Origin: Symsagittifera roscoffensis | Taxonomy: Eukaryota | Direction of reading: 5' to 3' | DNA length: 64,000 nt | Assembly (NCBI RefSeq): GCF_963678635.1 | Contig: NC_087064.1 | Coordinates: 32,681,028-32,745,027, forward strand | Shown here: positions 19,689 to 53,661 of the stretch, piece after piece | Position numbering within the stretch: the first letter of the stretch is position 1 | Layout of the letters: every line of letters begins with the position of its first letter | Program-made: the position numbers and the translations under genes | Notes under the pieces: model-generated | What the model was told of the DNA's origin: nothing | Databases searched by the model: none | Seen by the model: only the letters and a program-made list of their open reading frames with translations

Positions 19689-19744
19689 GTAAATGCACTT
19701 AAGAAAATCAGACTCCCTCCTCCACAGTTGTGCCTACGTATTTA

Positions 19745-27690: not shown

Positions 27691-27841
27691 TTTTTAATAG
27701 GAAGTTTTGTTCTCCTGAGTTACAATGCAATGGAATGAGATCTTAGGCGTTCATCAAAGTGTAAACTCAAATTTTAACTTTCTTTGGTAAATTTTTGGCT
27801 CTTTCAACAGTCCAAGTTACTATCTATGAAATATGTTTTAG

Positions 27842-28293
27842 GGGACTCATACTTCCTAATGTTGCGACCAATGAGTTTGGGATACCTTTGACAGACTTCG
27901 GCAAGCTGGGTCGAGGCATCTACTTCTCAGAACAGATGAATACGAGTTTAAAGTACTGCTCCCCAGCTCAACATGGGCTCAGATACCTTCTCATGTGTGA
28001 AGTGGTTGTCGGAAAGCAGTTCGAGACCTCGGATCTGATGCCCGAAAGAACCACAGCTCCAGAAGGGTTCGATTCTGTTGTTGCGAACCCTGATTCGCAT
28101 AACTTCAATGGAGATTCTGAGGTAGTGGTGTATAATACGAACCAAGTCAGATTGAAGTATCTGATTGAGTTGAAGGTCGAAGGCGATAATCAGAAGAATG
28201 GTTGGGAGTTCAATTCTCAGCTCTTGTTACCTGGTTTTGGTGGTGATGAGGTCGATCTAGCCAGCAGGGGAAAAGAGAACGACTTGAGCTTCG
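27842..28293 (+). CDS. PARP4: PARP4-like exon 7, C-terminal part of PARP catalytic domain (Tyr and catalytic Glu)
   Basis: Acceptor TGTTTTAG. The phase-2 entry gives LSR|GLILPNVATNEFGIPLTDFGKLGRGIYFSEQMNTSLKYC...YLLMCEVVVGK...APEGFDSVVA...DSEVVVYNTNQVRLKYLIELK. This is near-collinear with human PARP4 GSGIYFSDSLSTSIKYS...LLLICDVALGK...PPGYDSVHG...DEFVVYKTNQVKMKYIIKF. Donor TCG|GTGAGA is phase 1. Confidence 0.9.
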
Positions 28294-28429
28294 GTGAGAT
28301 TTTATGGGAGATATTTTTGTTGAATTTTGAAGTTCTGGCCTTAATTGCCAAAAATGGTTGCCTGTGTTTGCCTTTTTTTCAATCCAGAACTAACACTGAT
28401 GACCATCAGTAGAGAATTTAGAAAAAGGG

Positions 28430-28750: not shown

Positions 28751-28827
28751 GATGACCTACTTTAAAATAAAGTATTAAATGGAAGTTCAAAAGCTAAATT
28801 TCAAGATATGGCATCTTCGTTATATCA

Positions 28828-29099
28828 GATCTTGAAAAGCTGAAGCATCTGCTACCGCCGGAACCAGAAGCTGGACTGCTGCCGAAGAATGGCTCCAGAA
28901 ATTCCGTTCCACTCCAGGCCGTACATGTACGAGCGAAGCTAGTTGACCTTGCGGCTAAGGTTGTGGTTCTACAAGTGTATGAGAACAGGAACATAACTGA
29001 GTCGATTGAGGCCAAATACGTGTTCCCTCTTGACGAGTTCTGCAGTGTCGTTGGCTTCGAGGCATTTATTAATGGCAAACATGTTGTCGGAGAGGTCAA
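28828..29099 (+). CDS. PARP4: PARP4-like exon 8, VIT domain N-terminus (coordinates +/-1)
   Basis: Acceptor TATATCAG with phase-1 entry. ...SVPLQAVHVRAKLVDLAAKVVVLQVYENRNITESIEAKYVFPLDEFCSVVGFEAFINGKHVVGEVK matches human PARP4 VPLEDVHIKGRIIDTVAQVIVFQTYTN...IEAKYIFPLDDKAAVCGFEAFINGKHIVGEIK. Donor AAG|GTAAAA is phase 0. Confidence 0.85.
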
Positions 29100-29479
29100 G
29101 GTAAAACAAAATTTTCTTGCGGAATCCTCATCTATCTTTATTCAAAAAGATAAATGCAACTTATATCAAAAAAATTAATGCAACAAAATTATATTTTCTA
29201 CTTGAGAAATATCAATCCAACTTATGCAGGCTGCTTGTTATCAATTAGTTCATAGAAAAGCATCAGTAACGGCGTGGCGACCATTCGTCGCAAGCCATAT
29301 TTGCAGCATTTGTAAAAAGCAACTATTTGCAGCACGCGACGACTCATAGCATGCGACAATTAGTAGCGGTAGAAGCTTTGATCAGATCAAAGAAATTAGA
29401 TGAAACATTTAAATTAAAGAACAAAGAAACTAAAAATCAAAATTGAACGATAGGCCCTTAAGTTGCTTGAGAATATTTT

Positions 29480-34549: not shown

Positions 34550-34960
34550 GTGAAAGAAACAGCCCGAAAGGAGTACAAAGAAGCAATTTCTCAAGGTCAC
34601 GGCGCCTATCTGATGGAAGAGGACAAAGAAATTCCAAATGTGTTCTCAGTTGCGGTCGGTAATCTGCCTCCTAAAGCGACAGTCGTGATTAAAATCACGT
34701 ATGTCACCGAACTTCAAGTGGAAGCATCTGATCTGAAGTTCTCGATTCCTGGAGCAGTTGCACCTTGGAGTGTTGAAAATGTCAAAACTGATACTCTGCA
34801 GTCAACTGTAAAGAGTGTGTTATTAAATAATGGCGGATTTGGCGATAGAAGTGATATGGAGAAAGTTTTGAAGCATAAGTTTACTCTGCAAGTGAATATG
34901 GAAATGCCTTTCAAAATAATGCACCTGAAATCAGAGACTCATCCGCACTTGAAAACAAAG
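34550..34960 (+). CDS. PARP4: PARP4-like exon 9, VIT domain C-terminus
   Basis: Acceptor ATTTAG|GTG. VKETARKEYKEAISQGHGAYLMEEDKEIPNVFSVAVGNLPPKATVVIKITYVTEL matches human EKEEAQQEYLEAVTQGHGAYLMSQDAPDVFTVSVGNLPPKAKVLIKITYITEL. Donor AAG|GTGAGC is phase 0. Confidence 0.9.
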
Positions 34961-35157
34961 GTGAGCTATTTCCCAAAATTCAGTAATTATGTGCAAGTTT
35001 CATTTTTCATAGCTTTTCAACAAATTAGGTTTACACTATTATGAATGGGGTGTTTCTTTGTTCTTAACGTGAATATTATAACTGGGTTATTTGTGACCTC
35101 ATTAGTATGATTTAAAGAATTATGATTTTTTTTCGAATGATTGTTTTTTTTGTCTAG

Positions 35158-36405
35158 AGAACAGAGACAATGGCTGTGTGTGAACTACCAAACGGGACTT
35201 CGGATGGATCCGACGCCTCATCTCTCGGGTCACAAGGGTTTGAACTCCTGATTGGACTCAACGAGATCCACAAACCCAGAATGTGGGTGGAAAAGTTGCC
35301 CTTGCAGCCAAACGAACAAGCTACGATGCTAACATTCTATCCCGAATTTCAAACAAAGTCTGGTAGATATTCCGCGAGCAATCAGCAAGTTTTGATTCTT
35401 CTTGATTTATCAAACTCAATGAAGCATGATGATGCGTATTACTCGGCCATACAAGTTGCATGTCTGACATTGTGGAAAATTCCTGAACATTTTCTGTTTA
35501 ATGTAATCGTTTTTGGTACTGATTTTGAAGAACTCTTCTACAAAAGTGTACCCAATAGCGCGAAAAACAGAACAAAGGCAATTGAGTATTTGACTGAAAA
35601 GTCTAACACGTTCGAGCCTATGGGTGGTACGGATGCTAATAGACCTATAAGCATCGCCTGGGAACTTTTTAACAGCAATATGAAAGACTTTGCTAGAAAG
35701 CAGAAATTGAAATCGTTCAAAACAACTTTCTTGTTGATAAGCGATGGTCATATTTCACAGCCTACACAAAGTTCAATTTCATCGCTTTTTGATCAAAATA
35801 AGAGTCTCAATTTTCGACTATTTGCAAACGGTGTCTCGTCTTCGTGTGATAAGCATACGTTAAGAGTTCTGTGTGATAAAGGCGCTGGATATTTCGAGTT
35901 TTTCGACACCGCAACGAAATCATCCTGGATGAAAAAGGTCAAAGGTCAAGTGGAAAAATTTTCCCAGCACGTGCTGACTAATGTGTCAATCAAGTGGGTG
36001 CTACATGAAGACAAAGATGATGCCCATTTATTCGATCTTTCGAACCCTGACCGTGTCATTCAAGCGCCAGCTAACTTAACGGCACTTTTTGACGGCCAAC
36101 GAGTTGTGGTGTATGGCATCGTGTCATTTTGTCAGCAAGCGATTTTGGAGGCGGAATTAAATGGACACAAAGTTTCGACAGTTGTTTCAACATCTGATCA
36201 CATGGCTACTGAGGGTCATCTAGTACACCAGTTGGCTGCCCGAGCAGTGATACGAGACTGGGAGACGAGTGCCGTGTTACACTCGGATAAAGCGACTCAC
36301 GAGTTTGCGAAAGCCGAGTTGAAAAATACGATCATTCGGTTGAGTTTGAAACATCAAGTTGTTACGCCTTTCACGAGCTTCATTGCTGTCGAGAAAAGAG
36401 ATAAG
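35158..36405 (+). CDS. PARP4: PARP4-like exon 10, vWA domain and post-vWA segment (in-frame stop at 36415-36417 if read through)
   Basis: Acceptor TGTCTAG|AGA is phase 0. The 416-codon frame includes ...LPLQPNE (human LPRMWVEKHPEKE), VILLDLSNSM (vWA MIDAS DxSxS), LLISDGH, and ...QLAARAVIRDWE...VVTPFTSFIAVEKRDK (human KLAARALIRDYE...ITQFTSFVAVEKRDE). Donor AAG|GTTCTG at 36406. Confidence 0.9.
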
Positions 36406-36478: not shown

Positions 36479-36871
36479 AATGAAAAATTGAATATCGACA
36501 ATAGCTTTATTTACAAAATTATATCTGACGAAGATGTTGATGCATTGAAATATATCGGATGGGAGAACGAATTAATCATAAAGGTTTGTTTTTTTTCACT
36601 TAGCTTCAAGAGACACCTCACAGCTCGCTGTTTTTTTTTAAATTCAACTAGTTTTTCTAATAAAGCATTTATGGATGGATGCCATTTATGGAATAATAAG
36701 AGTTGGGTTCATGAGATGTTTCAGACGCCGAGTGAAAATTTCTCCGAATTAGTGGAACAGGGAATGAAGCAGAAGAGCTATTCGGTTCTCGAGGCCAATT
36801 GTTCCTTCAGCACCGCATACCAACTTCTACAGGACAATATCGAGTCTATCGACGTGGAAAAACTTCTTGAG
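36479..36871 (+). CDS. PARP4: PARP4-like C-terminal coding segment(s); one exon, or two with a short intron ~36584-36665
   Basis: Acceptor TGTTTTAG|AAT is phase 0. NEKLNIDNSFIYKIISDEDVDALKYIGWENELIIK resembles human PARP4 ...VSELIAKEDVDFLPYMSWQGE immediately after the vWA domain. The stop-free frame continues to ..DNIESIDVEKLLE, ending at the donor GAG|GTTTCA (phase 0). The internal T-rich stretch looks intronic, but I could not phase it consistently. Confidence 0.45.
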
Positions 36872-37839
36872 GTTTCATATTTATCGCGGTTTTGATTAAA
36901 CAAAACATGCTCAGAAAATTCTAGCAGAAGTCGAGAGCTATTTTATTTAGAAAATTTAATAAATCTAATGGGAGAAAATGGATAGTTACTTTTGAACTGT
37001 CGTTTGCTGTTTCGATTTATTACACAAGCAAAGCTTATGTGATAGTATGATTTCTCTTCTTTTCCGACCTAAGTCGCAAATATTGTGCTCTATAAATTGA
37101 GGAATGTTAGTTGGTAAATTTCTTTTTTTTTCAAATTGACTGGTACTGATAATGCGTCATAATAGGCTTGAGTCACTTAGCAACTATGTAGACTCATATT
37201 TGGCGTGCGAAATCATCATTCAGTTTTAATCATTCAGTTTTCCTTAGTAGCGTTATCGTTCATATTTTGCTTGTGTATGCGAAAAGCAACTTCGCCTCTG
37301 TGTTTAGTTTTTTTTTGTTTTTTATGCGAAATCAGGCAGCTTAAACATTCGTTGGAATAGATCAAGTGATATATCATATTGAAGCCGTTTCCGTTATGAT
37401 TCGAACATTTAAAATTTCCCAATGTCGAGAAAAATTGGTTCGAATTTTTTGATTTTTATTATAAGTACTAGGAGTATACAAGCGAGCGAGGTCTTATGAT
37501 AGGTTTTTAATTTTATATTTTTTGTTATTTGAGTAAGAACATGAAAGTTAAGTTCAACTGCAGTAAAATTGTTAATTTTTTCATTGAGATTTCTATAATT
37601 TGAGTGACATTCTATTGCTGAACTATGAACTGGCACACCATGATTTCACATCTTGTAATTTTATCTTTTGATATTTTTATACGTAGTAAAGATACTAACT
37701 TTTTGAGCAACGACCAAGACCAGTTGCCAGCTTAATAAATAATAAATTTAACTTGTGAATTGGCGTTTCGAACAGAAAAAGTTCGAAACTATTAGCTTTG
37801 TTACAATTTGTTTCCTTTGTTTGAGGAAAACTGATGTCA

Positions 37840-38290
37840 AATCTATCTATCTATAATTTAATTGGCGTTCTATGCGACTTATGTTTAAGAGTCTCTATAT
37901 AGACATGTGTAAAATCAGTAAACATAGACATTTTAGGTAATAGACTTGTACGTAAAACCATTTAGCATACATGAATGTAATAATACTCAAGGTCAAAAAT
38001 CTCAAGTTCAAAATTTAATTTAAAATCTATCTTTCTATCTATCGATCTATCTATACGACCATCGATACATTATTTAATTGGCGTTTCACTTGACACATTT
38101 TAAAGAAGTCCTTGTGTTGACATGTCGAACGCACTCATTTGGTGGTAGGTACATAGATTTACCTTCTACCATACATGCACGTAATATTACCCAAGGTCAA
38201 TTTTTTTATTTAAAATCATCTTTCTATCTATCTATTTATACATCCATCCAAACATTATCTAGTTGGCGTTTCACTTGAGAAATTTTAAAG
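37840..38290. repeat. Tandem repeat (~190 bp x ~2.5) with (TCTA)n microsatellite cores
   Basis: Three TCTATCTATC runs at ~37845, 38025 and 38225 are each followed by ...TTAATTGGCGTT(T/C)..CTTGA....TTTTAAAGAA. Confidence 0.7.
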
Positions 38291-38589
38291 AATTCCCTCT
38301 GTTGACATATTTAAGCTTTTTCAACTCATTATTTTCGCATGTTTAACGAAAGAATTTTTGCACGTTTGGGCTATATCGTATATTCTCATACTTAAGAATT
38401 TTCACTTGGAACAAGTGTCAGAAATTGCTATATTGGTCTGTTAAATGGCCAAAACAATGCAAGGGTTTTAAATGTAAACTCAAGTCTACCTTTTCAAATC
38501 TTTTGGAGCTGGATTGCTTTAACTCTACATTTTTCCTACATGCGCAACATAAAACTGTCAATTTTTTTTATCACATTTTAAAAAATTAA

Positions 38590-40230
38590 ATCGGATTTTT
38601 AAAACCCTTTAGTGGCTTGATATCAGGTTACACTCAGGGGTTGCCCATCTGGCGTTCAAGTATGACTGCTCAAATCCTTTTGGTGTTCGAAATATGGTGT
38701 GTTCTATGATTTTTTCTTTTTTTTCTCGAAGAACTTAGATTTAAAAAAATAACTGAGCTCGAAATTCTCAGCGATATAGTGGGTTGCTGTCAGGGTACAT
38801 TCAGAGATTGGTCATCGTTCTAGTGTGACTGCTCAAATCCTTTGGTGTTCGAGATATGGTGTGTTCTATGATTTTTTCATTTTTTTCTCGAAAAACTTAG
38901 ATATAAAAAACTAACTGAGCTCGAAATTCTCAACCCTATAGAGGGTTGCTGTCAGGGTACAGTCAGAGATTGGTCATCTGGCGTTCTAGTGTGACTGCTC
39001 AAATCCTTTGGTGTTCGAGATATGGTGTGTTCTATGATTTTTTCAATTTTTCTCAAAATCTTGGAAATAGGAAACTAACCGAACTCGAAATTTTCAAGCC
39101 TATAGTGAGAGGCTATCAGCGTACGCTCAAGGGATACAAACCTGCCATCCAGTTATAACTGCTCAATTATTATTGGTTTTCGAGAAATGGCGTTTGTTAT
39201 GATATTTTCTTTTTTTTTTCAAAAAAACTTAGACATAAGAACACAAAATCATTTGGACTTCATTCTCAACCCCATAGTGGCGTGTTTTCAGAGTACACTC
39301 AGAGCTCTGAATTTGGCTTCCAAGTGTGACTGTTCAAATCCTTTTGGTTTCGAGATATGGCGTTTTTTATGATTTGGAAATTTTGGATATAGAAAAAACT
39401 AACGGAATTTGAAAATCTCATCCCTAAAGTAGGATATTGTCAAAGTTCACTCAGCAGTTGCAAATGTGGCCTCCAATCATGACTGCCAAATCTTTTGGTT
39501 TTTGAGATATGGCGTTTTTTTTTTCAAAAACTTAGATGTAAAAAAATTAACCGAACTAGAAATTCTCAGAGCTATAGTGGGTTGCTGTCAGAGTTGACTC
39601 AGGGTTATTAAATCTGGCGTCCAAGTTTGACTGCTCAAATTTTTTTGGTTATTGAGATTTGGCGTTTATTATGATAATAAAATTGTTTTAAAAAATTTTA
39701 GTTTTAAAGAAATACTAACCGAACTTGAAGTTCTCAACCCTAAAGTGGGTGCTGACAGGGTGAACTCAAGGGTTGCGAATATGGCGTCCACGTATGACTG
39801 CCTAAATCTTCTTGGGTTTCGAGACTTGGCGTTTTTTATTGTTTTATTTCGAAAAAAAAACAATATTTAAAATTTTTCTATTATGTTTTCAAATTTTGTT
39901 CTAAAAAAAAACCTAAAATTTAAAAAACTAATCTTGACTTTGTCAACCCGAATAGTGTGGTTCTGTCACGGTACATTCAAGGGTACTGTCAGGATACAAG
40001 TCTGGCCTCTAATTTTTACTGCATTAATATTTTTTGTTTCCAAAAAATGGGGTATCCAAGATATTTTGTTTCCAAGAAGACTTAGCTTTAAAAACAACTT
40101 GTATAAATTGAATTTCTCAACCCTATGGTGGGGTGCTGTCAGTTTACAATATAGACTAGCAGTTGCCCTCTTATTTTTCCTGCTCAAATCCGTTTGGTTT
40201 TTGATACATGACGTTTCGACTAGAGATAGA
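38590..40230. repeat. Satellite, ~155-bp unit, ~10-11 diverged copies
   Basis: The unit ...AACTGAGCTCGAAATTCTCAACCCTATAGTGGGTTGCTGTCAGGGTACA.TCAGAGATTGGTCATCTGGCGTTCTAGTGTGACTGCTCAAATCCTTTGGTGTTCGAGATATGGTGTGTTCTATGATTTTTTC... repeats with growing divergence toward 40200. Confidence 0.8.
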
Positions 40231-40304
40231 TGAGGCCAGTTTATCTTCACGGTTGTATTAATTATCGCTGTTTTTCAGAGAGCTTTTTCTATGTTCAACG
40301 ATTA

Positions 40305-40665
40305 TTTTGGAGCACCGTAGGAACGAGTCATGCGCTAGTATACCTAAATTAGTCCCTACCGAGTAGAACTAAGCTCAAGGCTTTTGATCAAATCCTCTCA
40401 TCGAACCGCGAATAAAAAAAGAAACAATATCAAGAAATTTTTTTTTGCGGTTCAATAAGAGGATTTGAACGAAAGCCTTGAGCTTAGGTTTACTGGATAG
40501 TGACTCAGAAATAATTATTTTTATATTGCTTTCAATAATCATAAAAGCTTAACAAAAGCATTTTTCAGATTGTCGTTTGTTTTGCGGTTCGATAAGAGGA
40601 TTTGAATCAAAGCGTTGAACTTAGGTCTAATCGATAGCGACTAGTTTAGGTATATTGGGCATCAG
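40305..40665. mobile_element. MITE-like element with terminal and internal inverted repeats
   Basis: Left arm AGTCCCTACCGAGTAGAACTAAGCTCAAGGCTTTTGATCAAATCCTCTCATCGAACCGC. Its reverse complement appears internally (GCGGTTCAATAAGAGGATTTGAACGAAAGCCTTGAGCTTAGG...) and again at the right end (GCGGTTCGATAAGAGGATTTGAATCAAAGCGTTGAACTTAGGTCTAATCGATAGCGACTAGTTTAGGTATA). Confidence 0.6.
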
Positions 40666-41217
40666 TTGCCTTCAAACAAGAGAAACAAGTTAAAGAAGTC
40701 GAATACAAAACTACCGATTTTACTGGAACTAAATTGAATTTTTACGGTCTTAATCAAATATTAAAAATTATAAACCTATTATAAGACCTCGCTCGCTTTT
40801 TTTCTCTACTAAAATCAAAAATTCAAAACCGATTTTTCTCGACATAGGAAATTTTTTTTACAGTAACTGCCTATCCTTTTTCATTAAAAATGTTGTAGAA
40901 TATTCTAAACTTACTATTACTATGCCTACGTTCTAGGCTTTTGCTCGTCACAACGAACAAATTGTGGTTAGTTTGTTCGTTTTGATCAACTAAATGTCGT
41001 TTTTGTGGTCGGAACAAATATTGTTCATTTTTCTGCTCGGAACTTTCTGTGCTATGCAGGTTATAACTGTAATTCGAATCAAAATTCTAATACCTGAATT
41101 GTAATACCTGACTAAGTTGCCGGTTTCGAGAGAATTATGGTCATTTTCGTTTCTTGATTCTATTTTTAATGTAAACGAATTCCTGAAATCAAGAATTTAT
41201 ATCTGTCTAATTTTTAG

Positions 41218-41393
41218 TTTGCTCTGGGCTATGCTGACATCCTGAAAGACTCGCCTGGCTCGGAGAAAATCATGCGCTCCACCATATTGAAAGTATTTGG
41301 GTCAGTAGTCAAGGAAATTGAGTCTGGAGAAGAGGAGACATTTTCTGATGCCAGAACTGAGAAAGTCAGGGAATTGTTTGCACAACTAGACCA
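41218..41393 (+). CDS. Internal coding exon A of a ubiquitin-like-domain gene (helical N-terminal region)
   Basis: Acceptor TTTTTAG|TTT. FALGYADILKDSPGSEKIMRSTILKVFGSVVKEIESGEEETFSDARTEKVRELFAQLD. Strong donor CCA|GTAAGT is phase 2 and joins exon B in frame. Confidence 0.5.
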
Positions 41394-41624
41394 GTAAGTA
41401 TCCAGAAATAACGGAGTATGTGTTAGTAGCATCTCTTATTGAAGTTTTATTGAGACCAGGCGTCCTCTGGCATATCTTAAATAACAATTCAGAAGTCAAT
41501 AATTTATCATGAAATTTGATTCGAATTAATAATTTGGAACCACGATTCTCCTTCAGTATCTTCCTAAGTTATGCTTGCAAAAGATTCTAGACAGTTGTTT
41601 GTATTAATTTCATTTTCGTTTCAG

Positions 41625-41799
41625 GAGTATGATTGATTCCTTGGACCAGACAATGCTCACATCCCTGAACAAAGCAACCAATAACTCTCTTCTGCGGCTC
41701 CTTAGCGTGCATGTTATAGAATTAACTGGAAAAACCTCGATCTACTCCATCTCAGCCTTTGATACATTTGGCGATCTCAAGGTGCAAATCGAGGAAAAA
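41625..41799 (+). CDS. Exon B of the ubiquitin-like-domain gene (start of Ubl fold: ..HVIELTGKTSIYSISAFDTFGDLKVQIEEK)
   Basis: Acceptor TTTCGTTTCAG|G. Restored codon Q, then SMIDSLDQTMLTSLNKATNNSLLRLLSVHVIELTGKTSIYSISAFDTFGDLKVQIEEK. Donor AAA|GTTAGT is phase 0. It aligns to ubiquitin residues 1-33 ([33 protein letters not shown]). Confidence 0.7.
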
Positions 41800-42528
41800 G
41801 TTAGTGTGTCTTAATGCTTAACGAAGCAAAAAGGTATAAAATTAAGGCATTTTATTAGCGCTTGCGTGTCAGAATCAGTGAAGTCAATTTGGTGGTAATC
41901 CTTATGCGAATTGTATGGTTGATGACATCCGTTTCTTTCGGGAATCAACTTTCTTCTCGTTTCGTGTTTGCCGTAGAATGCTTTGTCCTTTGATCTTTTT
42001 TCCTTTCTAATTGCTACTTTCACTGTGGCCTTTTAAAAGGTATGTTCTCTTGGTACAGCTCCTGATATAATGACCACTTTACGTGTCATTTCATTGCTGG
42101 TCACCCCGAAGTCCGAGAGATCGAAATAAACCTGATGATGTTGCTGATGATGAGGTTCCTCTAAATATCAATACTGCATTCTAATTCCTGGCTTTCCATC
42201 GCCAATTTTAAGCCTGTCATTATGCACACGGTTTTGCCGTACCACTCATCTAGCGCGCTGAGGTATGCAAGTACGAGTCGAATGGCCTCTTTTTTTTACT
42301 GGTATGACGATCACAGTCGTCCATCCGGGGTTTGATTATGCTTAAAAACGAGTCCGGTTTTGTGGCATGCGGGTTGTCCCAAGGAGTACATCTGTCATCT
42401 TCTTTCTGTTTTGTGATATGGAAAATCTATCGACTGTATCTATTTTTTGTTTGCGGTAGCTGATTTTGCGTGGGTTAAAAATATTGCAGTGGTCGGAAGA
42501 ATAATAACTTGATCGCTCTTTGTTTTAG

Positions 42529-42681
42529 ACAGGTATTCCCGCGGATCAGCAGCGGTTGATTATCAGAGACCACCAGTTGTTGGACCACATGTTGCCATCA
42601 GACGTGGGAATGAATAATGGAGACAAGATACATATGGTGCTGCGGCTCAGAGGAGGTAACATATATAAAAAAAATTTATAA
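42529..42681 (+). CDS. Exon C of the ubiquitin-like-domain gene: C-terminal half of the Ubl ending ...HMVLRLRGG, then a 7-aa tail and stop
   Basis: Acceptor TTTTAG|ACA is phase 0. TGIPADQQRLIIRDHQLLDHMLPSDVGMNNGDKIHMVLRLRGG-NIYKKNL* aligns to ubiquitin [43 protein letters not shown]. Equivalents of L8, I44, H68 and V70 are conserved and the diglycine is intact. An alternative GAG|GTAACA donor sits right after GG. Confidence 0.75.
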   Translation, partial: TGIPADQQRLIIRDHQLLDHMLPSDVGMNNGDKIHMVLRLRGGNIYKKNL

Positions 42682-42689
42682 AAAAGATC

Positions 42690-43190
42690 AGTAGTTCGTG
42701 AAGTTGACGTGAAGTTTCAAAAATATACTGGAACCAGTTCTAAACTAGAATTTATAATTGGTTATAAATATAATTCTCTATTCCTTTAAAGTAATAATAC
42801 TAGCCAATCATATTCCATCCCTAACAATGACACTTATTTGTAAGTGCTGAAACTACTTGTAGTTTCAGCACCAGAACAATTTAAATAAAACTTAGACTAC
42901 AGTTGTTCTCTTCTGGATACAACTCAAAGAACTAATACGCAAAACCGGTATACACTAGATTTGTTGAGACTAGGAGATATAAGAGTAAGATTAAGATTGG
43001 TATTAGACTAAGAAGTAGCACGAATCTATCCGGCCGAAAATAAGATAGCATGACGAACAGACGGTGTACTCTATCTGAAATTACTCTATGAGCATAACCA
43101 ATAGGTCATAACTTATCTGGTGCGACCACACGTGTCGAACAAGACCTTAACTAACCTATAATTAGAATATTGAAATAAAAATTAGACAAT
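42690..43190 (+). repeat. Putative 5' LTR of the retrotransposon (contains a 13-bp-stem hairpin GTGCTGAAACTAC..GTAGTTTCAGCAC at ~42843-42875)
   Basis: Non-coding block immediately 5' of the A-rich internal region. Boundaries are approximate because no 3' LTR is present for comparison. Confidence 0.35.
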
Positions 43191-46100
43191 TGCAAAAATG
43201 TTAGATGGATTAGAGAGTTTAATAGAAATGTCTCTACGACACAATAGATCTATGCCAATTTTCCAAACAATACGAGAAATACCAGGTATTGCGAGAAGGC
43301 CAAAAACAAGGCGCGATCTACGATTGAGAAGAAACCTACCAATCGACTTCATGCTAGTAAGACGAAAACCGGAAGAACAAATTTTCGTATTTAGAATCCT
43401 TTCCGCAGTAAATTTAAATTTATTTTTACTGACATAAAAACAATCTGAAGAAAAATTCTTCAGTACAAATATTGCTCAACCTACTATTTATAAAATAACG
43501 ATTGATAAAAACAACACAAGTCGTTCCTACAAAATCTGCAGTAAATCAAAACTTTTGAATAGAAATATTTATTGAACAAAACAACAAAAATTTGTTAGTA
43601 TAAAATTTGTTGTTAGTTTCATTAATATGCACACATCTTTTCTTCATCCCAGCTTCATCACCTAAAACATAATAGCAAATTTCAAAAAACTAATATCATC
43701 TAAACTTTAACTTTAAACCTTTTTAAACTTAAACCTTTAAATTAAACTTTAATAAGGCTTATTCTTGCTTTCTTTTAAATTATCTTATTTTAAACAACAG
43801 ATCATCAAGGCGTTCCTTGGATCTTCAAAGTCACATAAATTAAATTTCTTTTAATTCTGATCATCAAGGCCTCCCTTGGATCAAATCATACCAATTTTGT
43901 TCACCTAAACAAATTAGTTCAAGTGTCTAACGACCTCAAACGTCGATTCACTTTCCAACCCTTATAAACGACTCAGGACTAATCGAAATTTTTGAAAAAA
44001 CTAACCATTTTAATTAAGATAAACAGTGAAGAACTTCGGTTACTCATCCCTCACTTGAGCCCATCCTCTTAGATGACCCAGACTAAAACACTTAAAACTT
44101 AGTAAGTCATAAGATAGTATCTAACGGTCTACTTGCGTTCTAATCATACCTGAACCTTGTGGATTGATTTACTATTCTCCAACCTTTGATCACAAATCAC
44201 AACCCCTAAGTAAGATCATAAAAAGTCCCTCTTGGACGAGAACCTAATCACGAGAAAGTAAAAAATCATTCTCACGAATTGATATACTTTTCTCTCTCCA
44301 ACCCGTTAACTCCGACAATCTATGCCCCAAGTTAAGATAACCACACAAAAACTGTATGAACTAACCGTTTAAGGAAATATAAACTCTAACCCCCTAGTGC
44401 TTGCTTCCCTCATCCTAAAACTTATGTCAAGAGATAATCTAGGCAGTAAACAAACAATCATATTACATAATTGTTTAATCAGAAACGAACGGTACGATCT
44501 TGTAATCACACCCCACAAACAAACAATAGGATATATCAGATCAAAAAGACAAACACGTGAAAAGACAATAATAGCAAAACAAAAGCAAAGTATCAAAAAA
44601 CGATTTCAAAGAGGAAACGCAGCCTCAGAATCAGAAACAAACACGATACAGGAACTTCAAGATTTAAAAAGTTCAATAAACAAGAAAAAAGCACTAGAAA
44701 AGTCAAAAATGTTTTTTTGACTCCGAAGCAACATCACCATCATCAATTAAAGGAAAACGTAGAATTCAAAAATCATACATTAATAAACGAGTACGTCTTT
44801 ATAATTGGAAAGAACCAATCCGACATATTGAAAGTTACACATTAACAGTTTTGAGATGATCGAATAAAACGAAATTTTTGACAATAATTCAATTTTCCCA
44901 TTTTCTATAAACCAGAAAGTGATCCCGCTCGAGGACAAGTACAATTTTGTCACAACTTAATTGTAAATTTATTCGAAAAAGTTTAGAGCCCGTGTAAAAA
45001 TGAATTTCCCGAAATAAGAATAACAAGTCAAATCCTTGACCACTACCTCAAAGATTAATGTAACATAACAACACAGTACGGTGTATTCACAATAGAAACC
45101 TTTTCACCAAAACCAAACCACCCTATACATCAAATACAAATAGATGACATAGATGCAGAATTCTCAAAAGATTTTACAGAATACATAAAAAATATACAAC
45201 ACCATAATTCACAAAGAGCAAATGATGTTTTTTCACTTATTTACAGCTATGTATTTATACTAGAATCGAAAGAGATACAAGATGCATCACCACGTCAAAC
45301 ATCCAGACCCTCAACTGTAAGACACGAAATAAATATTTTTTCAAAATTTTTAGATACAATACGTGAAAATTTCAACGTTAATGAAATTTCACAAAACGTC
45401 AAACACGATCTACAAAAAATTTTAGCATGGTTCATTATTGACTATTTCGTTCACAACATTGATTTTATAACACAGTCAAGGAAAAGTTTTAAACCACAAA
45501 ATTTAGACGCAACTGTATTAGCAGATAAAACAGATTATGTTTGGGACACTGATAAGTCTCATCCATTATTGATCAGTATAACAACTGATATTTCAAGCGC
45601 AGCAACTGCAACTATATCCGTAAATAGAGAATATGTTAAAATAACTCCACTTACTATTGACGCAACCCCTTTAAACTAAAATACAAAATTCACTGATAGA
45701 ACAAAAAATAATAGCTTAAAGTCCACATTCATTAATACACAAGCCAATTTAATTGGAACAAGAATTCTTACACAACAAGATATTTAAACTCCATCACATT
45801 TCATAAATGAAGAAATTGTTGAGACCAGGCCAATAACAAGACAACAAAGCATATCTCCTATTCACCCAACAATTACAACACCACCAAATAAAAACGCAAC
45901 ATTTCCACAAACAACCATACAATCAACAATAAAACCTTCTGTTGCCCCGAAATATTCACAAATGGATTATCAGACAATTAGACCAATAACACGAAATCAC
46001 GATAATCAAACAAAAAAAAATGACAGAAACAATTTTTCAGACCATAATAATAATTTCTTAGCCAATAATAATATAGCAAAACCCCCCCTATAAAAGCTAT

Positions 46101-46312
46101 CAAAGTCAATCACAGGCACAAAACTACAACCAACAATCACAACAACAAGTTTTCCACTCAGTTTTTTCAACGATCAACAACGAGATACAGCGGATTATAG
46201 TGAAAATATTTCAATTTTTCAACAAAATAAAAAATTGACAAATAGACATTTTACAAGAAATCAACCACATTATTCAGAAGATGAAGATTATTTTAATCAA
46301 AACCACCAATGA

Positions 46313-47182
46313 TTGTATATAAATCATCAAAACAACAACTGGAATATTGATCAACCAGATCCTATCTATCAACCAGATCTATTTGAACCATACGCACGAA
46401 ACGAACAAACACAACAATCAAAACAAACTTTTCCTCCAAGACAAAATTCAGCATCATATAACAATAACAATTTCCCATCACAAAAACCGACAAATACACA
46501 AAATTATCAACCAGCACGAATGCAAAATGAAATTCCGTTGCCATATTTTTTACAGCAACATGAAATCACAAAAACAACTAAAAATTTTTTCTCAAATGCC
46601 AAATGGCGCAGAATCATTCAAATGACTTTGAATTCATACCTTATGGGTGGATCATCCATATCTTCGAATAAACCATTAATGGTATTCACAGGAACAGATC
46701 CTGAATACTCAATAGAAGATTATTTAATTGCAATCACAGCAAATTTAAATCTCAATGTAGGACCTGAACCAATAAATAGGCCACTTCATCGAAATTGGAT
46801 ACATAGACGCACAGCTCTAATCCAAACCACACTTGATGGCGCATCAGAAAAATGGTTTCAATTTTTACCAATTGAAAATAAATCAGACTGGAAAAGATTC
46901 ACACAAGAATTTTCAAAAATGTTTGACTCTGAAAGCAATAAACAACATCAAAGAGTTTTTCGTAATGAAATCCGTAGACTCCCTAACGAAACAATCAAAC
47001 AACTTGCAGTAAGAATCAAAACATTAGTAAGAAAAGCATACTCACTTGATACACATGATTACAAAAATATGAAAATGACAGAAGTCTTAATGATAACTTT
47101 AACACCACAACTACGAAAAATAGCGATAAAAAAGAGAGCATCGCATCCATCTTCAATTCGAGAACCTGATATAGATTTTTGA
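46313..47182 (+). CDS. Retrotransposon Gag (capsid-like) ORF
   Basis: The 289-aa ORF includes ...DGASEKWFQFLPIENKSDWKRFTQEFSKMFDSESNKQHQRVFRNEIRRLPNETIKQLAVRIKTLVRKAY, typical of retrotransposon Gag. A zinc knuckle follows. Confidence 0.7.
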   Translation: MYINHQNNNWNIDQPDPIYQPDLFEPYARNEQTQQSKQTFPPRQNSASYNNNNFPSQKPTNTQNYQPARMQNEIPLPYFLQQHEITKTTKNFFSNAKWRRIIQMTLNSYLMGGSSISSNKPLMVFTGTDPEYSIEDYLIAITANLNLNVGPEPINRPLHRNWIHRRTALIQTTLDGASEKWFQFLPIENKSDWKRFTQEFSKMFDSESNKQHQRVFRNEIRRLPNETIKQLAVRIKTLVRKAYSLDTHDYKNMKMTEVLMITLTPQLRKIAIKKRASHPSSIREPDIDF

Positions 47183-50100
47183 AAACTAGTAGACAAACTA
47201 GAACAAGCTGAAATCACAAGGAAACTGGAAGAAACAGAAAACATAACATCCAAATAGGTACTTCACAAATGAATAATATACAAGATTCCGACACGGAACT
47301 AGCTGAAAAAATTACTCAGATATTGAATATCTATGAGAAAAATCCAAATTTTAACGGTAAACCAGCATTCAAATAATAGTGCAAGTATTGCCGTAAATAC
47401 GGACATAGAATTGCTGAATGTAGACAAAAACAGCAAGTTAATCAGAATAAACCACAAAAATATAGAGAACCAAATAAATCTTGCTATCAATACATGAAAA
47501 AAGATTAAAACCTACCAAACAAAATATTCAGTATTAATAGTTCAGAAAAACCACTCCCAGACAATAATAATAATAGACAACAATCATCTTACCGTAACAA
47601 CTATTGCGGAAGATCTCCAGATCGAAGAAATTCTCAAAGTTTCCCACAAACTAGATACAGCAGATCAAATAGTCAAAATAACCAATATCGAAATAATTAC
47701 TCAAGATAAACTCAAACAGAAGTAATTATTTAAACTACAACAGAAATAATTCCAATTCAAACTCTCGTAACAGATAATATTCCAACGATCAATCTAGAAA
47801 TTCTTCATATAATCGAAACAGGAATTACTCAAATAACAGAAACAAACAATAATCAGACAATAGACCACGAAATTACTCAAACAACAGATCAAACTATAAC
47901 AACAATTACAACAGTTCGCTAGATAATTCTAGAATCTGAAACTATAATTATCCAAATAGACGAAGAAACTATTCTCAGTCACCGCAAAGAAATCATACAA
48001 ACTATCAATATTCACAACAAAATTGTAGAAGCAGTACACCTAAACACCAAAGACAAATAAATCAGATACAATCAACTGAACAAACTCAATCAGACCCGGT
48101 ATTGATAACACAAAGTTCAGAATTACAATTAAATCACATAAATTGCGAATCCACAGATGACGAAAGCGAAACAGAAAACACATTTTCAATGAACATGCTT
48201 CACATTGAAGAATACGTAACACCAATCGAATCGAATTAATATCACAATCACGAAAATTTTAATAATCTTGATGAACAAAACACCACACAAAATATGATAG
48301 ATTATACTAAACAAGAACTCGAAGGAAGTTCAAGTACGAATAACATATACCAAATTATAACAAATAAAGTAGAACCAGCTAAAAAAAAATTTGGACACTT
48401 TCATTACAAAAATTTTATTAGAAAGTCCAAAAAACAAAAATTTTCAGTCACCAGACCTTGAAATTGATTTTTTAAAAGACTCAGGAGCAGAATCAAACAT
48501 TATAAATATTCCCACTTGGAATGATTATAAACATCCCCACGCTCTCCCATAATTAATAACTCGACGTTATTGCTGAGACATGTGTCAAATTTGAGTTCGA
48601 CCGAAATAGTGCAATTGGTCAATTCAGGATGAATGAAATCGCGTGAAGCCTCCTATACGTGAGATCAAAAGCCATAATAAAATGATTATCATAATTAGCG
48701 AGACTGATTCCATGACTAGTTTTCAAAACGAAATCAAGAGGCTCAAGCGTATTGTAATAAATTCTTTTATTGTCTGATTTTGAGTTGGGAGTTCCGACAA
48801 GGTGTAGGCCGTTTCTGTATACAATGATCTCATTCAACCCAAACTTCTGGTAATGAACAGTGTTTGTCCTATTAGTACCCAAATATGCTTCTTTTATGCT
48901 CATTGCTACTATCATTATTCGAACAGGTTCTTTTGCGAAAACATCCTCCTCTTGTCGCAAGCTTTGTACTCCTGCAGTTGCGAGAAAAGTTTTTGGTTTT
49001 TTGGTACTACTTCGATGTAATTGTAAATTGCCGGGTTCTTCAACAGAGTTTTTTCTATTGACGAGAGAACATAATCAGTCACATTCATTTTTCAGACAGA
49101 GATTAGCTTCGATTATTTGAACCTTGGAGTGTTTAGCTGCATCTTCAGACATGACAACAAAATCGTTAGGAGAACGTCTAAGAGACAATCTAATTGTCAC
49201 ACCGCTAAGTAGGTGCTTCTCACACTACAAGAAGTCGCAAGCAATTTTACCAAATAGCTTCAGCTCGTTCGAGGCCGCAACGAGACCTTTACGCTCCGTA
49301 ACATCCTCAGCTCTCCTCCCATTACCGTCAATAGCTGATAGGTTTTCTTCTTAATAATAACCTTGACAAGCCAACCATGTTTCTTGGCATCATTACAGTA
49401 TGAAAACTCGGTCTCAATAAAGCTTTTATGGGCGAAATTAGCGTTAGTAATTGATATTTTCTCACCTTTCAGAGACAGTGTTTACTCAGAAAATAATGAA
49501 GATAAATGATTGTTAACAAAATACGGCATATCTCTGTTTGGCGCCTCTGTAGCATGTGTTCGAAGCACGTTTCCATTGCTTCGAACAATTCGTGCAACTT
49601 TTTCCAAACGAGTACGTTGAAGATCGATGAAAATATTTCTGTCGCCGAGTACTTCAAACTCGAGCATAGGAACATCAGGAGAGTAGGAAGGTCCAATTTT
49701 TTGGGTGAATGCATTTTCAAAAGTGACAACTAAAGGCGGTTTTTCAAATAAGTTCAACGAGCTGTGAGTTGCTTCACTCGGGATTAAATAAGAAATCATT
49801 TTTAACCCTTGTAAAGAAATCGGAGCGACTTCTCTGGGCAGTTCGTTTTCTGGGAATGACGCGTCTCGTTTTTCATTTCACCACCGTTGTTTTTTTTTCG
49901 AATGACTTTTTCGACATCTACATCCTCCTCCTGCTTGCTTTTTTATTGTTTTTCTAAAGGTGCTCTTGAGTGCCTGCTTCGAGCTTTTTCTTTTTATGAA
50001 AACTATCAGTTCTGGAGCTGCCTGAAGAAGTAGTTCTTTCCGATCTTTTTTGCTGCTGGTATCACAAACTTTCGAGCCAATGGAAGTGCCACTCTTCCTA

Positions 50101-51346
50101 TTCCCAGGGCTAATGCGCCGAAGCCACTGCCTCGTTGTCTATAATGCCCCGAGAAATGTTGTAGGTTTGCTTGGTTGTGGTAATATGAATCCATATTGAT
50201 CAATTGCTTAACTTTTGAATTTCAAAGTCAGAACAACTTTTCCACCTCCAGCGAAAGGAACAAGTCCTCCAGTTTCTGTGCGCAAGTTCACAGAAATATT
50301 GTTTTTGATCAAAAATTTTTCAAAATCCAATTTACTAAACATTTACGATGATTCGGTCGGTTCAATTGTACATGCGTAACCGTTCTTCACTCGACGATTT
50401 GTACCAATGACTCGTAAAAGGGGTGCTTTTGTGTCTCCTACTATTTGATAATGAATTATGTCCGGGTAAATAAACATAAGCTGAGTACCAGCACATACAT
50501 CAACGGGATTGTCAGCAACAAGATCTTGGGTAGTGAATGTGTTATGTTTAGAGCTTCTTGTTTGTAACCTATAGGATAACCAGTTCCATCTATGACGCCC
50601 TTGAATTCAAGTAGACTAAGAATTTGCAGGCTTGAAAAAGTTATACCATCCCAATAATGCAGCCATAATGAAAGATGTTTGGTTATTGGATCTATTGCAT
50701 AATCCAGTTTCTCTAATTCTGTCTTTCGACGAATCTCATCTAGTATTTGTTCAATGCTCGTATACTCTCATTTTGTTAGTTTCGCTTTTTCTCCAAGGTA
50801 AGGCCTGGAGATTTTGTCTTTCTCAACTTTCATGCTTGCAATAACCAGATCTTTTTTGTAGTACCCAATGTTGTTGTCAGTTACGTTGTTTATCTGAGTG
50901 CTGAAGGTAATTTCTGTAACTGCTACTTTACCTTCACCTTGCAAATTTATTTCTTCACTCAGGAGATTTTTGAAGTTGGCCAGAGATCTTTAAAAACCTT
51001 CTTTGATGCAGATGAAACTAGGGTAATTGTGAAGGAAGGGGAACGTTATGGGTGTAAAGGCTGGAAATGCCCTCAGTCATGATTGCTTACGATTTCTCCT
51101 TCTCCAGAACGCGGATTAGTTCAGACTAGTGAAATTTCCACTCAATCGGTTCTCTGTTAGAATCAATCAAATTGTATGTTGGGGGATTTCGTGTTGGTAT
51201 GTCAAATACTTCAACTTTTTCATCGGTGAACGATTGTTTGTAACCCTTGCGAAAAGGTATGTCTACTTTGGCGAGTCTAACATAATAACCAACATAAAGC
51301 TTTGGACGTCGAACTTATTTCAACGACTGTTCTGCTCTTAAAGAAA

Positions 51347-51913
51347 TCAAGCGAGGACTATCTTTTTTAGTTTATTTGTTTGGTGCAAGATTTGTGACAC
51401 GATTTGTTCTCGAATTAATTGCCTTGACAAAATCTTGCAATTTGTCAATGTATGAGAATCCTCCAAGTACTTATAAATAAGATTTTTCAAGGAACGGATA
51501 TTTCTCTTAGCGAATGCAGACTTTTTATCGCTCTCTGTGCTATATGTTTTTATGCCCTTCTTTTTAGATAATGCTTCGAAGGATCCTTTAAACTCTGTGC
51601 CGTTGTCCACCCATACTTTTTTTAGTTTGTTTTGTCGTTATCATTAGTTTGAACGCTTCTGCTGTTGTAGTAGCATATTTTGATTTCAAGGGTTGCACTC
51701 ATAGGCCAGATCTATTGACCAGATTTCGTCGATATCGTAAACTATGACCTTGAGTCGCGGCATTTTTCGGATGAATGTTCGATATTTCGTGTAAGCAGCT
51801 TCAGTATGAAGGAAATGTTCAACTTTCTTTCGCGACAAATTGGTTGCTTTTATCAAGTTGCTCACACTACCAAATAACGCGCGACCTTTTTCACTGTATT
51901 TAGTTTTCAACAA
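51347..51913 (-). CDS. Retroviral-type (rve, DDE) integrase, split over two frames
   Basis: 51686..51913(-) gives ...RLKVIVYDIDEIWSIDLAYECNP (first catalytic D region). 51347..51610(-) begins MDNGTEFKGSFEALSKKKGIKTYSTESDKKSAFAKRNIRSLKNLIYKYLED (core D-N-G-x-E-F). Confidence 0.75.
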
Positions 51914-53046
51914 TTTTTCTTCATTTTTTTCGTCTTTTCTGACGTTGGAGAATCTGAATCGTTGTAGGGCGTTCCGTACGAGTCAGAGCCTTCTGACTCG
52001 TTTTCACGCTTTTGATTTCGGGTTTTTCTTTTGTCGCTAAGGCTTTTTCGTTTTTGTTTTTTACTTCTCTTAAGGTTTGCACTACTTCTTTCCTGCTAAG
52101 CGGGATGTTGGGCGTGTTCTTGAGGGTCCGGGTTCTCGTTTTTCTTGAGCGTTGAAAAACGCTGTCTGAACCGCGTGTTTGGCATTTCGATTAAATACCA
52201 GCTTTTCATTCAAGTTGAGTGCAGTTAAAATGATAATGAACGCTGGATTGTGTAATTTTTTGTTGGTTGTTGTATGTCGTATAAAAATACTGTAGCTTCA
52301 AGTCCTGTTGGTTTTTTATCCGCATATATCACTTCATTGTTACGGTTTATGGTTACTCTTTCCGAATTTTTTATGATTTCAAGTATAGTTTTTGCTCTAA
52401 TAAATTTTTTGTCCTCTAAAACCTGTAACTGTCCCAAAATATTTTCGGTCTGCCTATCTTTTTTATTTTCTAATATTTCATCTTTATCACGTTCAACCGT
52501 TACTTCTCCATCGTCCGTTAACAGTTCAAGCTGTTCTTGTTGGAGCTCAGCAGCATTTTCTGCTAATGTTTCTTGGTTGCAGTAGTCTTTGTAGTTTGAG
52601 GAGGTATTTGGAGTCTAAGCGGGTTAAGGTAGGATATTTGAGCGTTTTAATGTTTATTACTATTATCGTGAAGAACACGTGCAGCATGTGGCTGCTCTTT
52701 AACATATAAGTGTTTCGGAATTAGAATGAATTCTTCAGCAGTCATAATTAAATTGAGAGGTACTTGTAACAAAAATAATGTTTTTGTAGCGCTAAATGGA
52801 AACCTTTTTCACTCAAAATAATCGCACGTTTTTTGACAACACTGGTTTTGGGAGTGATTAAATATTTGTACGCTATCTCGAATCGTTCAATATTTGCGTT
52901 TTAACGGGTACGTTTCCATTGACTACATTGAGCAAACATTAACAGTTAAGTGTTATGACCTCGCGATTGAAGTTTTTCCAATTAATTGTCTTAGTTGTTC
53001 AGGTGTCAGTTGTACCATATGCCGCAGAATAGATACGTTTTTCTTT

Positions 53047-53661
53047 TTAATTTGTGATTGGAGTAGTTTCTGCTTTAGATAAGGGTAAATAAAAAATTGT
53101 TGGCCCAGGCCGTGTGATATTTGAACAATATCTCAAACAATCTGATGTGCGGGGGTCCAAGTCGATTAGAAGATGTCCAAAAGAGTCTATGGTAGCTAAT
53201 TCGTAACAGCTTCTCAAAAGTTTTGATACATTCAATTGTCTTCCTAAAAGATCTAGTTGCTGAACGACACGAGGCGATTCGAACAGAATGATGTGTGAAG
53301 TGTTCAAATCAATCGTACGCGACCATCGACTTTGTTGAAACAAGTTATGCTTAACATATATTACATTTAACCCTCTATGTCTACCCGCTGTCGCTAATCT
53401 AACAAATTCCTTGACATTATAGATGTCTTCACATGAATCATCGAAAACTAGAAGAACAGTTTCTAAGTTTCTTAAAGATCCGAATCCGTTGAATTTCATG
53501 AACTTCTCTTTTACTTCGCGAGAAGACACTTTTTCTGAGATTGCAGGTTGCATCTCTTTGTAAAGATATAGAACGGTTCCAAGTTTAGAGTAAAAAGTAT
53601 TTCCCATCAAAAGTTTGAAATCAGTTTGTTCATATCCTCGGATTTGGTAATACGTAACCAA
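53047..53661 (-). CDS. P-loop ATPase-like ORF (Walker-B-like VLLVFDD; possible FtsK/A32-type packaging ATPase)
   Basis: The 204-aa ORF has ...ETVLLVFDDSCEDIYNVKEFVRLATAGRHRGLNVIYVKHNLFQQ (hhhhDD then a polar/Arg-rich sensor region). Only the degenerate GNTFYSKLGT lies upstream as Walker A. The assignment is tentative. Confidence 0.3.
   Translation of the reverse strand: MVTYYQIRGYEQTDFKLLMGNTFYSKLGTVLYLYKEMQPAISEKVSSREVKEKFMKFNGFGSLRNLETVLLVFDDSCEDIYNVKEFVRLATAGRHRGLNVIYVKHNLFQQSRWSRTIDLNTSHIILFESPRVVQQLDLLGRQLNVSKLLRSCYELATIDSFGHLLIDLDPRTSDCLRYCSNITRPGPTIFYLPLSKAETTPITN

Follow-up and report, generated by a model that had tools for sequence, protein, structure and literature searches.

A ubiquitin-like domain with an LRLRGG tail as a probable internal module of a PARP4-like gene in Symsagittifera roscoffensis

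Downstream of a PARP4-like gene of Symsagittifera roscoffensis, three exons (A to C) on the same strand encode a ubiquitin-like domain (Ubl) with an intact LRLRGG terminus. To which gene do these exons belong, and is the Ubl the end of its protein? We addressed this in a stretch of 64,000 nucleotides (contig NC_087064.1 of RefSeq assembly GCF_963678635.1, positions 32,681,028 to 32,745,027), called the window below. An earlier note on this DNA had left two possibilities standing, a fusion of the Ubl to the PARP4-like gene or an adjacent Ubl gene whose 5' exons are hidden in satellite DNA. Our analysis supports the fusion and does not need hidden 5' exons. With a probability of roughly 0.62 we read exons A to C as internal coding exons of one long PARP4-like gene (clade 5, vault-type PARP) on the plus strand. 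That the exons belong to the PARP4-like transcript seems very likely, and that the Ubl is internal and not terminal seems probable. The most economical model has the gene spanning at least 9.3-58.4 kb of the window (at least 49 kb) and continuing beyond it. The predicted order is BRCT, PARP_reg-like, PARP catalytic (H-Y-E), VIT, vWA, a degenerate 14-3-3 half, a 27-residue linker, Ubl (LRLRGG) and an actin N-terminal module (actin-N).

Direct reading of the window confirmed AG acceptors and GT donors for all three exons at the positions first proposed. Exon A (41218-41393, 176 nucleotides, phase 0 to 2, borders tctaatttttag/TTTGCT and AGACCA/gtaagt) opens in phase 0 and is immediately preceded by an in-frame TAG. 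Exon B (41625-41799, 175 nucleotides, borders tttcag/GAGTAT and GAAAAA/gttagt) encodes the 27-residue linker followed by residues matching ubiquitin 2-33. Exon C (42529-42655, acceptor ttttag/ACAGGT) encodes ubiquitin-like residues 34-75 and the first base of the G76 codon and ends at a candidate phase-1 donor, GGAG/gtaaca; read unspliced, it extends over 42529-42681 including a TAA. All three lie on the plus strand. Joined with read-through they yield the 167-residue peptide quoted before, with the C-terminus HMVLRLRGGNIYKKNL followed by a stop.

The family assignment was confirmed by the profile search that had been proposed for it: Pfam ubiquitin (PF00240) matched residues 89-158 of the 167-residue peptide with E=9e-16 and 57.9 bits (cut-off 25.4) over profile positions 3-72 of 72. 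The alignment to ubiquitin residues 4-76 is free of gaps, with 33 of 73 positions identical (45%), and ubiquitin itself is the top match among solved structures. The local score is 113 for ubiquitin and 48 for ISG15. Retained ubiquitin residues are L8, K11, K27, K33, R42, I44, H68, V70 and L71-G76, so that the previously noted L8, I44, H68, V70 and LRLRGG are all intact, whereas K6, K29, K48 and K63 are replaced. LRLRGG is the same in all three assemblies of the locus. A beta-grasp fold is inferred from the sequence; a single-sequence AlphaFold2 model was poor, with a mean pLDDT (predicted local distance difference test) of 47 and values below 50 in the Ubl region. A word-indexed protein search with the 167-residue peptide gave matches only at the level of ubiquitin and none to the helical part that precedes it. 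When a 251-residue spliced query was searched against representative proteins, polyubiquitins dominated and 0 of the 150 matches listed covered its N-terminal part. No match was obtained in a scan of the JGI metagenomes using exons A and B, nor in an Rfam scan of 36-49 kb.

Comparison with related loci, labelled L001 to L034 below, was used to place these exons. Relatives were also collected by scanning JGI metagenome contigs with an alignment of vWA exons, which returned 58 loci; L013 and L014 are such contigs. L001 and L002 are other assemblies of the same locus and are 98.7% and 99.6% identical to the window. The source genome is also contained in the ENA assemblies ERZ25071366 (contig ctg21409l) and ERZ25878734 (contig ctg22781l), and L003 is contig ctg87898 of ENA ERZ26859043. 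Contig ctg180956 of ERZ25074608 is another related contig.

The gene upstream of exon A has the domains of a clade 5 PARP, namely a PARP catalytic domain, VIT and vWA, together with the BRCT found in animals. All of its exons are on the plus strand. BRCT is encoded by the stop-free stretches 9342-9509 and 9620-9835 (Pfam BRCT E=4.8e-9 for the joined peptide). A PARP regulatory-like exon and the first catalytic exon, with LYHGTSP carrying the H of the H-Y-E triad, occupy 18535-19689; here PARP_reg scored E=9.5e-4, under the Pfam cut-off, and tblastn also aligned the region with the open reading frame of L005. A further catalytic exon lies inside the stop-free stretch 27765-28409 (Pfam PARP E=5.9e-14, likewise aligned with L005), where GIYFSE and SEVVVY provide the Y and E of the triad. 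VIT is split between 28798-29175 (58% identical to L005 by tblastn, with a VIT call on the same reading frame of L001) and 34550-35041 (Pfam VIT E=1.7e-13). The vWA and post-vWA exon of 1.25 kb follows at 35158-36405 (Pfam VWA_3 E=2.7e-12, phase-0 donor AAG/gttctg); its best named relatives, PARP4-like proteins from Lingula (43% identical) and Tegillarca, reach identities of about 42%. Next come the 'NEK' exon at 36479-36583, which contains EDVDALKYIGWENE, and a first 14-3-3-like exon at 36725-36871 (147 nucleotides, phase 0 to 0, donor GAG/gtttca). The vWA and NEK exons match human PARP4 residues 1069-1214 with E=2e-32, and homology to human PARP4 can be detected no further than the NEK exon; past residue 1214 of the human protein, phmmer found no similarity to the window.

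Does this gene end before exon A? Left unspliced, exon 36725-36871 would reach a stop at 36893-36895. L003 and L004 (vWA 46-47% identical) conserve the homologous exon as far as the GT equivalent to 36871, but not the read-through codons; a further conserved exon of 170 nucleotides, phase 0 to 2, lies 0.6-0.9 kb downstream. Because the read-through is not conserved and a next exon is, the gene appears to go on past 36871 and not to end at 36895. The phase 0 stated earlier for the donors at 36405, 36583 and 36871 holds for all three, and exon A opens in the same phase. A chimeric query for further L003/L004 sequence matched nothing but one unrelated protein, which probably derives from a repeat. 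In the public annotation of L003, TGA is read as Trp, as in protein P0007, where W stands at a TGA of the DNA; the artefact arises from applying a gene caller made for prokaryotes or an alternative code to a host contig in a metagenome assembly.

Of the related loci, L013 and L014 have ubiquitin-like domains as well, encoded 1-4 kb past the vWA exon and on its strand. For L014, a seven-exon model using AG/GT sites only runs in one unbroken frame through NEK, three 14-3-3-like exons, a short acidic exon, Ubl1 and Ubl2. In its 321-residue product Pfam recognised 14-3-3 with E=4.5e-28, but only from profile position 131 to the last, 223, and ubiquitin twice with E=3.7e-38. Ubl1 lacks the LRLRGG motif, and Ubl2 terminates in VLRLRGGPPE; L014 is the only locus in which the end of the second Ubl is present. 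L013 has the same layout up to the contig end, with its Ubls in frame with PARP4-like exons. The window Ubl is 46% identical to L014 Ubl2. A 14-3-3 segment appended after VIT-vWA is clear in L009/L010, L013, L014 and L016; in L009, L010 and L016 the vWA, NEK and 14-3-3 half adjoin directly, with no introns in L009/L010.

The anatomy of the L014 14-3-3 segment returns in the window. The first 14-3-3 exon has 144 nucleotides in L014 and 147 in the window, both phase 0 to 0; the part that follows has 176 nucleotides in both, as two exons of 85 and 91 nucleotides in L014 and as exon A in the window, both phase 0 to 2. The intron position also matches, with EKLLE/FALGYADIL in the window, PLRLE/VALSYSAYL in L014 and PIRLG/LALNFSVFYYEIL in 14-3-3 zeta. 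By this equivalence of the junction, the 4.3-kb satellite-bearing intron would split one predicted helix. A custom hidden Markov model, for which L013, L014 and 14-3-3 zeta (C-terminal half) supplied the sequences, was searched against 2116 sequences, made up of 2113 six-frame stretches of the window and three spliced peptides. First of the 2116, with E=0.0039, came the window peptide spliced from 36725-36871, exon A and the start of exon B; it was collinear over 89 profile positions and across the exon junction, and the spliced L003 and L004 peptides ranked second and third. Either window exon alone was not significant (E=2.3 and 27). No 14-3-3-like or other homologous coding stretch was found in the intron 36872-41217. 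Exon A is therefore read, on moderate statistical and good anatomical evidence, as the next exon of the PARP4-like gene. The helices before the Ubl, which measure about 86 residues within exons A and B instead of the 120 first estimated, would be the second half of a 14-3-3-like module begun in the preceding PARP4-like exon, and not the leader of an ISG15/FUBI-like precursor. A diverged MINT domain was also considered for this helical region and rejected (z<=0.7). The window has the same truncated extent as L014 and not a complete nine-helix 14-3-3. In 14-3-3 zeta the phosphate-binding residues K49, R56, R127 and Y128 sit on N-terminal helices; since these helices are missing, the 14-3-3-like segment would not be a canonical phosphopeptide reader.

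We then turned to the end of exon C. Read through, it continues into a tail (NIYKKNL and a stop, 42656-42681, plus strand) that completes G76. This seven-residue tail stands for the present haplotype and falls for L001 and L002, where small changes shortly before the stop abolish it and read-through would give about 43 residues, provided that the next stop is that of the window. These bases probably open an intron, with GGAG/GTAACA at 42655/42656 as a plausible phase-1 donor; the apparent stop would then be bypassed within the last Gly codon. Two actin-N-terminal-like exons lie 14.5 kb downstream on the same strand, the first at 57142-57282 (phase-1 acceptor ttttag/GT GGA GAC, phase-1 donor AAG/gttagt) and the second, beginning with VMVGMGQKDCYVG, at 58290 to about 58411, its 3' end not being defined. 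Across their junction they read VVMDCGSLYVKAG…LVGRPRHQG/VMVGMGQKDCYVG. By tblastn the first exon matches L005 residues 1316-1350 and both together match residues 1316-1366 (E=0.006-0.02). Splicing 42655 to 57142 would join G and GT into a Gly codon and give the product LRLRGG-GDPTAYNEE…VVMDCGSLYVKAG. Eight exons with canonical AG/GT sites, from 35158 to 58411, then comprise 747 codons without a stop. Exons A, B and C add up to 478 nucleotides, which is 1 mod 3, and dropping them would break the frame because the donor at 36871 is phase 0 and the acceptor at 57141 is phase 1. The Ubl is thus probably not the C-terminal end that it had been taken for. The putative 14.5-kb intron (42656-57141, plus strand) holds retrotransposon remains, with a gag open reading frame at 46313-47179 (Pfam Retrotrans_gag E=2.5e-5). 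Taken alone, the actin-like exons would pass for a stray 'actin-like gene'.

Related loci carry the same downstream module. In L005 a single open reading frame of 2002 residues encodes BRCT, PARP_reg, PARP, VIT and VWA, after which come part of an actin N-terminus (positions 6-64 of the 410 in the Pfam Actin profile, E=5.6e-12), a GFGLF/proline-rich region and finally a segment resembling MINT. An actin-N module lies on the same strand downstream of the NEK exon in L014, L020, L022, L025 and L026, and L034 also has the module; its positions are 4050-4289 in L005, 13307-13585 in L014, about 13.6-14.5 kb in L022/L025/L026 and 6433-6642 in L034. In L014, the Ubl2 donor GAAG/GTAAAA and the acceptor of the actin exon, tttgtag/AT, are both phase 1, and their junction would read LRLRGGPPE-D-LELDMSVVIDTG; farther on, L014 stays collinear with L005, showing first a weak GYGL motif and at its end a weak match to MINT. 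L005, L020, L022, L025 and L026 have the NEK and actin modules and no Ubl. As an observation on the family, an actin N-terminus of about 50-70 residues, through the HQGVMVGMGQKD D-loop, recurs downstream of the PARP4-like vWA in many loci.

Several points weigh against reading A to C as internal exons of one gene. All exon junctions of the model come from sequence. The 14-3-3 similarity of the window relies on the three-sequence custom profile (E=0.004); hhalign gave E=2e-4 over 90 columns at a probability of only 46%, and Pfam 14-3-3 did not match the helical region of the window even at E<=10, which is why we call the module degenerate. Exon A showed no significant similarity to the positionally equivalent L003/L004 exon by hidden Markov model or global alignment, and only post-hoc anchored tests reached p of about 0.005. 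Downstream, the donor GAG/GTAACA lacks the consensus G at +5, Pfam Actin on the joined 87 residues stayed under its cut-off of 27 (22.5 bits, E=4.9e-5), and the window and L014 each have an ATG where the actin-like core begins, so that a separate start is conceivable. Finally, the one substitution in 480 sites of exons A to C, where 3.9 were expected, is not significant (P=0.10).

In the alternative that survives best, the PARP4-like transcript is polyadenylated after exon C and the Ubl is terminal, with a short extension that a deubiquitinase could trim to GG; such an isoform might coexist with the long form. The missing G at +5 of the exon C donor counts in its favour. In this haplotype an in-frame stop does follow seven codons past GG, an AATAAA lies about 200 bp downstream of it, and L014 likewise has a stop soon after GG (LRLRGGPPEGKNFF and a stop). 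The AATAAA is, by our inference, expected by chance about once per 850 bases at this composition, and even within the species the tail varies, since two other assemblies lack the stop. Against a terminal Ubl there is also the actin-N module, a family feature of several relatives that is found here downstream, on the same strand and phase-matched. We consider a terminal isoform unlikely, although better placed than the two explanations that follow.

It is much less probable that exons A to C are a small Ubl gene of their own that sits, in the same orientation, inside a long intron of the PARP4-like gene. Such a gene could start at an in-frame ATG in exon A (41272, with A at -3, a reasonable context) and encode 149 residues with a helical leader of about 70, processed at GG like an ISG15 or NEDD8 precursor. 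The only coding difference among haplotypes in these exons (A to V, 41234) falls upstream of this ATG, and the leader has no homolog in the protein databases searched. Yet exon A begins exactly at a strong acceptor and has the phase and length of the equivalent L014 14-3-3 exons, and its 14-3-3-like similarity becomes significant only when it is joined to the upstream PARP4-like exon. The L013/L014 Ubls are in frame with PARP4-like exons, and omitting A to C disrupts the frame between the PARP4-like and actin-like exons.

Most improbable is that exons A to C are a relic spliced into no mRNA, the remnant of a module being lost with a residual open frame: the Ubl-less relatives with NEK and actin modules, the strong degeneration of the 14-3-3-like part and the non-significant polymorphism test would fit this, but three open frames and six canonical splice sites are retained, neither the hydrophobic patch nor any part of LRLRGG has decayed, removal of A to C puts the exons on either side out of frame, and one substitution in 480 exonic sites compares with about 0.8% among the three assemblies in flanking non-coding DNA.

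If the Ubl is internal to the PARP4-like protein, it would be a built-in ubiquitin moiety in the linker that joins the enzymatic and ITIH-like body to the C-terminal part. R72, R74, G75 and G76 are identical in the window Ubl and L014 Ubl2, and about half of the remaining domain has changed. These four residues are not structural in ubiquitin; their retention across such distant domains suggests selection on the tail and hence recognition by deubiquitinases or E1-like enzymes. Bonds of the in-line ubiquitin-Gly kind are those that deubiquitinases cut when they process polyubiquitin, ubiquitin-ribosomal fusions and pestiviral polyproteins into which ubiquitin has been inserted. Because the window has an in-line ubiquitin followed by Gly, the bond type that these enzymes cut, we tentatively favour a deubiquitinase-type cut after GG, which would separate a PARP…Ubl-GG fragment from an actin-like, C-terminal fragment. 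A possible alternative, held with somewhat less conviction, is an uncleaved docking domain for ubiquitin-binding proteins. The residue after GG in L014 is Pro, and Ub-Pro fusions are poor substrates for most deubiquitinases; this counts against cleavage and fits a docking domain. That both lineages, the window's and that of L014, lack K29, K48 and K63 is compatible with either view and statistically not distinctive. It is a far more speculative and very improbable extension of the cleavage model that the Ubl-GG end of a PARP-VIT-vWA-14-3-3-like-Ubl fragment of about 1,500 residues is freed by deubiquitinases, activated and attached to lysines of target proteins, or else to the vault or the cytoskeleton. 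If this were true, an active ADP-ribosyltransferase would be delivered as a giant ubiquitin-like 'modifier', with the actin-like/MINT-like fragment separate.

How much of this architecture was known? PARP4-like proteins with an appended 14-3-3 have been described in amoebae, Branchiostoma (lancelet), Strongylocentrotus (sea urchin) and Capsaspora, some of them with an additional C-terminal actin domain, and the mention there of 'ubiquitin-related domains' is confined to two clade-5 PARPs of Acanthamoeba (Perina et al., 2014, DNA Repair 23:4, PMC4245714). In view of that work the gene family and its modular C-terminal region were already known, and the claim of a novel PARP-VIT-vWA-Ubl fusion would hold for the Ubl with its intact tail and not for the architecture as a whole. 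The published type and the window share a BRCT, PARP, VIT, vWA core and, in our reading of the window, a probable 14-3-3-derived segment directly behind the post-vWA region and a probable actin-derived segment further down, a layout also seen in L005, L009, L010, L013, L014 and L016. The window differs in a 14-3-3 part too degenerate for Pfam and in a Ubl with LRLRGG between the 14-3-3-like and actin-like parts. In the literature we found no description of an animal PARP4-like gene in which a ubiquitin copy with intact LRLRGG separates the 14-3-3 module from the actin module, a comparison to which sea-urchin and lancelet gene models did not belong. The window Ubl module with its intact tail is a variant of the published 14-3-3/actin-bearing PARP4-like type.

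Human PARP4, or vault PARP (PDB 9bw6; Nat Commun 2025, PMC12280208), has a core homologous to the window up to residue 1214. In the region that corresponds to the added modules it has a disordered, fast-evolving linker and an MVP-binding MINT/MVPID domain, and neither PMC10450202 nor PMC12280208 reports a 14-3-3, ubiquitin-like or actin-like module for it. A MINT/MVPID-like helical end as in the human protein is found in L005 and weakly in L014; the window ends before any MINT-like exon.

With in-line ubiquitin fusions (polyubiquitin, Ub-eL40, Ub-eS31 and cytopathic pestivirus polyproteins) the window would share further polypeptide directly after GG, but its Ubl would be placed in the middle of a protein of probably well over 1,500 residues and not at a precursor N-terminus. 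Compared with ubiquitin, the L8/I44/H68/V70 patch, R42, R72, R74 and G75-G76 are kept, and the lysines K6, K29, K48 and K63 are lost. ISG15 ends in LRLRGG with a short extension, and OASL is an enzyme-like protein with C-terminal Ubls that lack GG. The tandem di-Ubl of ISG15/FAT10 resembles L013/L014, whereas the window encodes only one Ubl, which probably does not form a gene by itself; no second ubiquitin-like exon was found anywhere in its 64 kb. A free modifier or N-terminal precursor does not fit either, as a PARP4-like body and a 14-3-3-like segment precede the Ubl in frame: releasing a free 76-residue Ubl would require an additional upstream cut, of which the sequence gives no sign.

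PARP4 is the least understood vault component, and in mammals its linker between the ITIH-like body and the vault-docking domain is disordered and fast-evolving. In invertebrate PARP4-like proteins the same region would serve as a slot for captured modules, namely half a 14-3-3 domain, an actin N-terminus and either one ubiquitin or two. A ubiquitin copy with an exact processing and activation tail inside an ADP-ribosyltransferase would offer a concrete link from ADP-ribosylation to ubiquitin handling, and raises the questions whether the enzyme is cut at GG, is docked via the Ile44 patch or modifies its own ubiquitin. For annotation, three 'orphan' Ubl exons and what looks like an 'actin-like gene' farther along probably belong to a single gene, at least 49 kb long and split by introns filled with satellites and transposons.

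Among further features of the family, an acidic '[DE]xGFGLF[GD]' motif, behind which long proline-rich (PPPPP) stretches lie, is common to the C-terminal regions of several PARP4-like relatives. The GFGLF region lies at 1893-3437 in L010, at residues of about 1440-1800 of the L005 reading frame and at the C-terminus of Tegillarca P0010; downstream of the Ubl within the window, no exon with this motif was found.

The window is AT-rich (GC 0.31-0.41), and its introns are rich in repeats. The 4.3-kb intron (36872-41217, plus strand) contains a tandem repeat at 38652-39672 with 148-162-bp units, 2.4-2.8 copies per array and 76-89% matches, which bears out the satellite reported upstream of exon A. 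Between the PARP catalytic exons, at about 19.7-27.7 kb, the intron holds several tandem units of about 1.9 kb that are mutually 84-94% identical; they were seen as repeated BLAST matches of L002 1-2507 at 19764, 21396, 23284 and 25171 and as repeated six-frame peptides. Long Asn/Gln/Thr-rich open reading frames, including the retrotransposon gag domain, occupy 44.4-48.3 kb on the plus strand, a region around which no pair of long terminal repeats was found at the settings used; L001 includes its start, to about 46.4 kb, where the L001 locus ends. Coding polymorphism among the three assemblies comprises the A/V change in exon A (41234) and five substitutions in the vWA exon (35944-36132). The intron within the VIT domain (29.2-34.5 kb; L001 3929-9009) carries minus-strand MULE-/FLYWCH-like open reading frames and repeats of about 0.9 kb, and since L001 has more copies of this repeat than the window or L002, the intron is structurally polymorphic.

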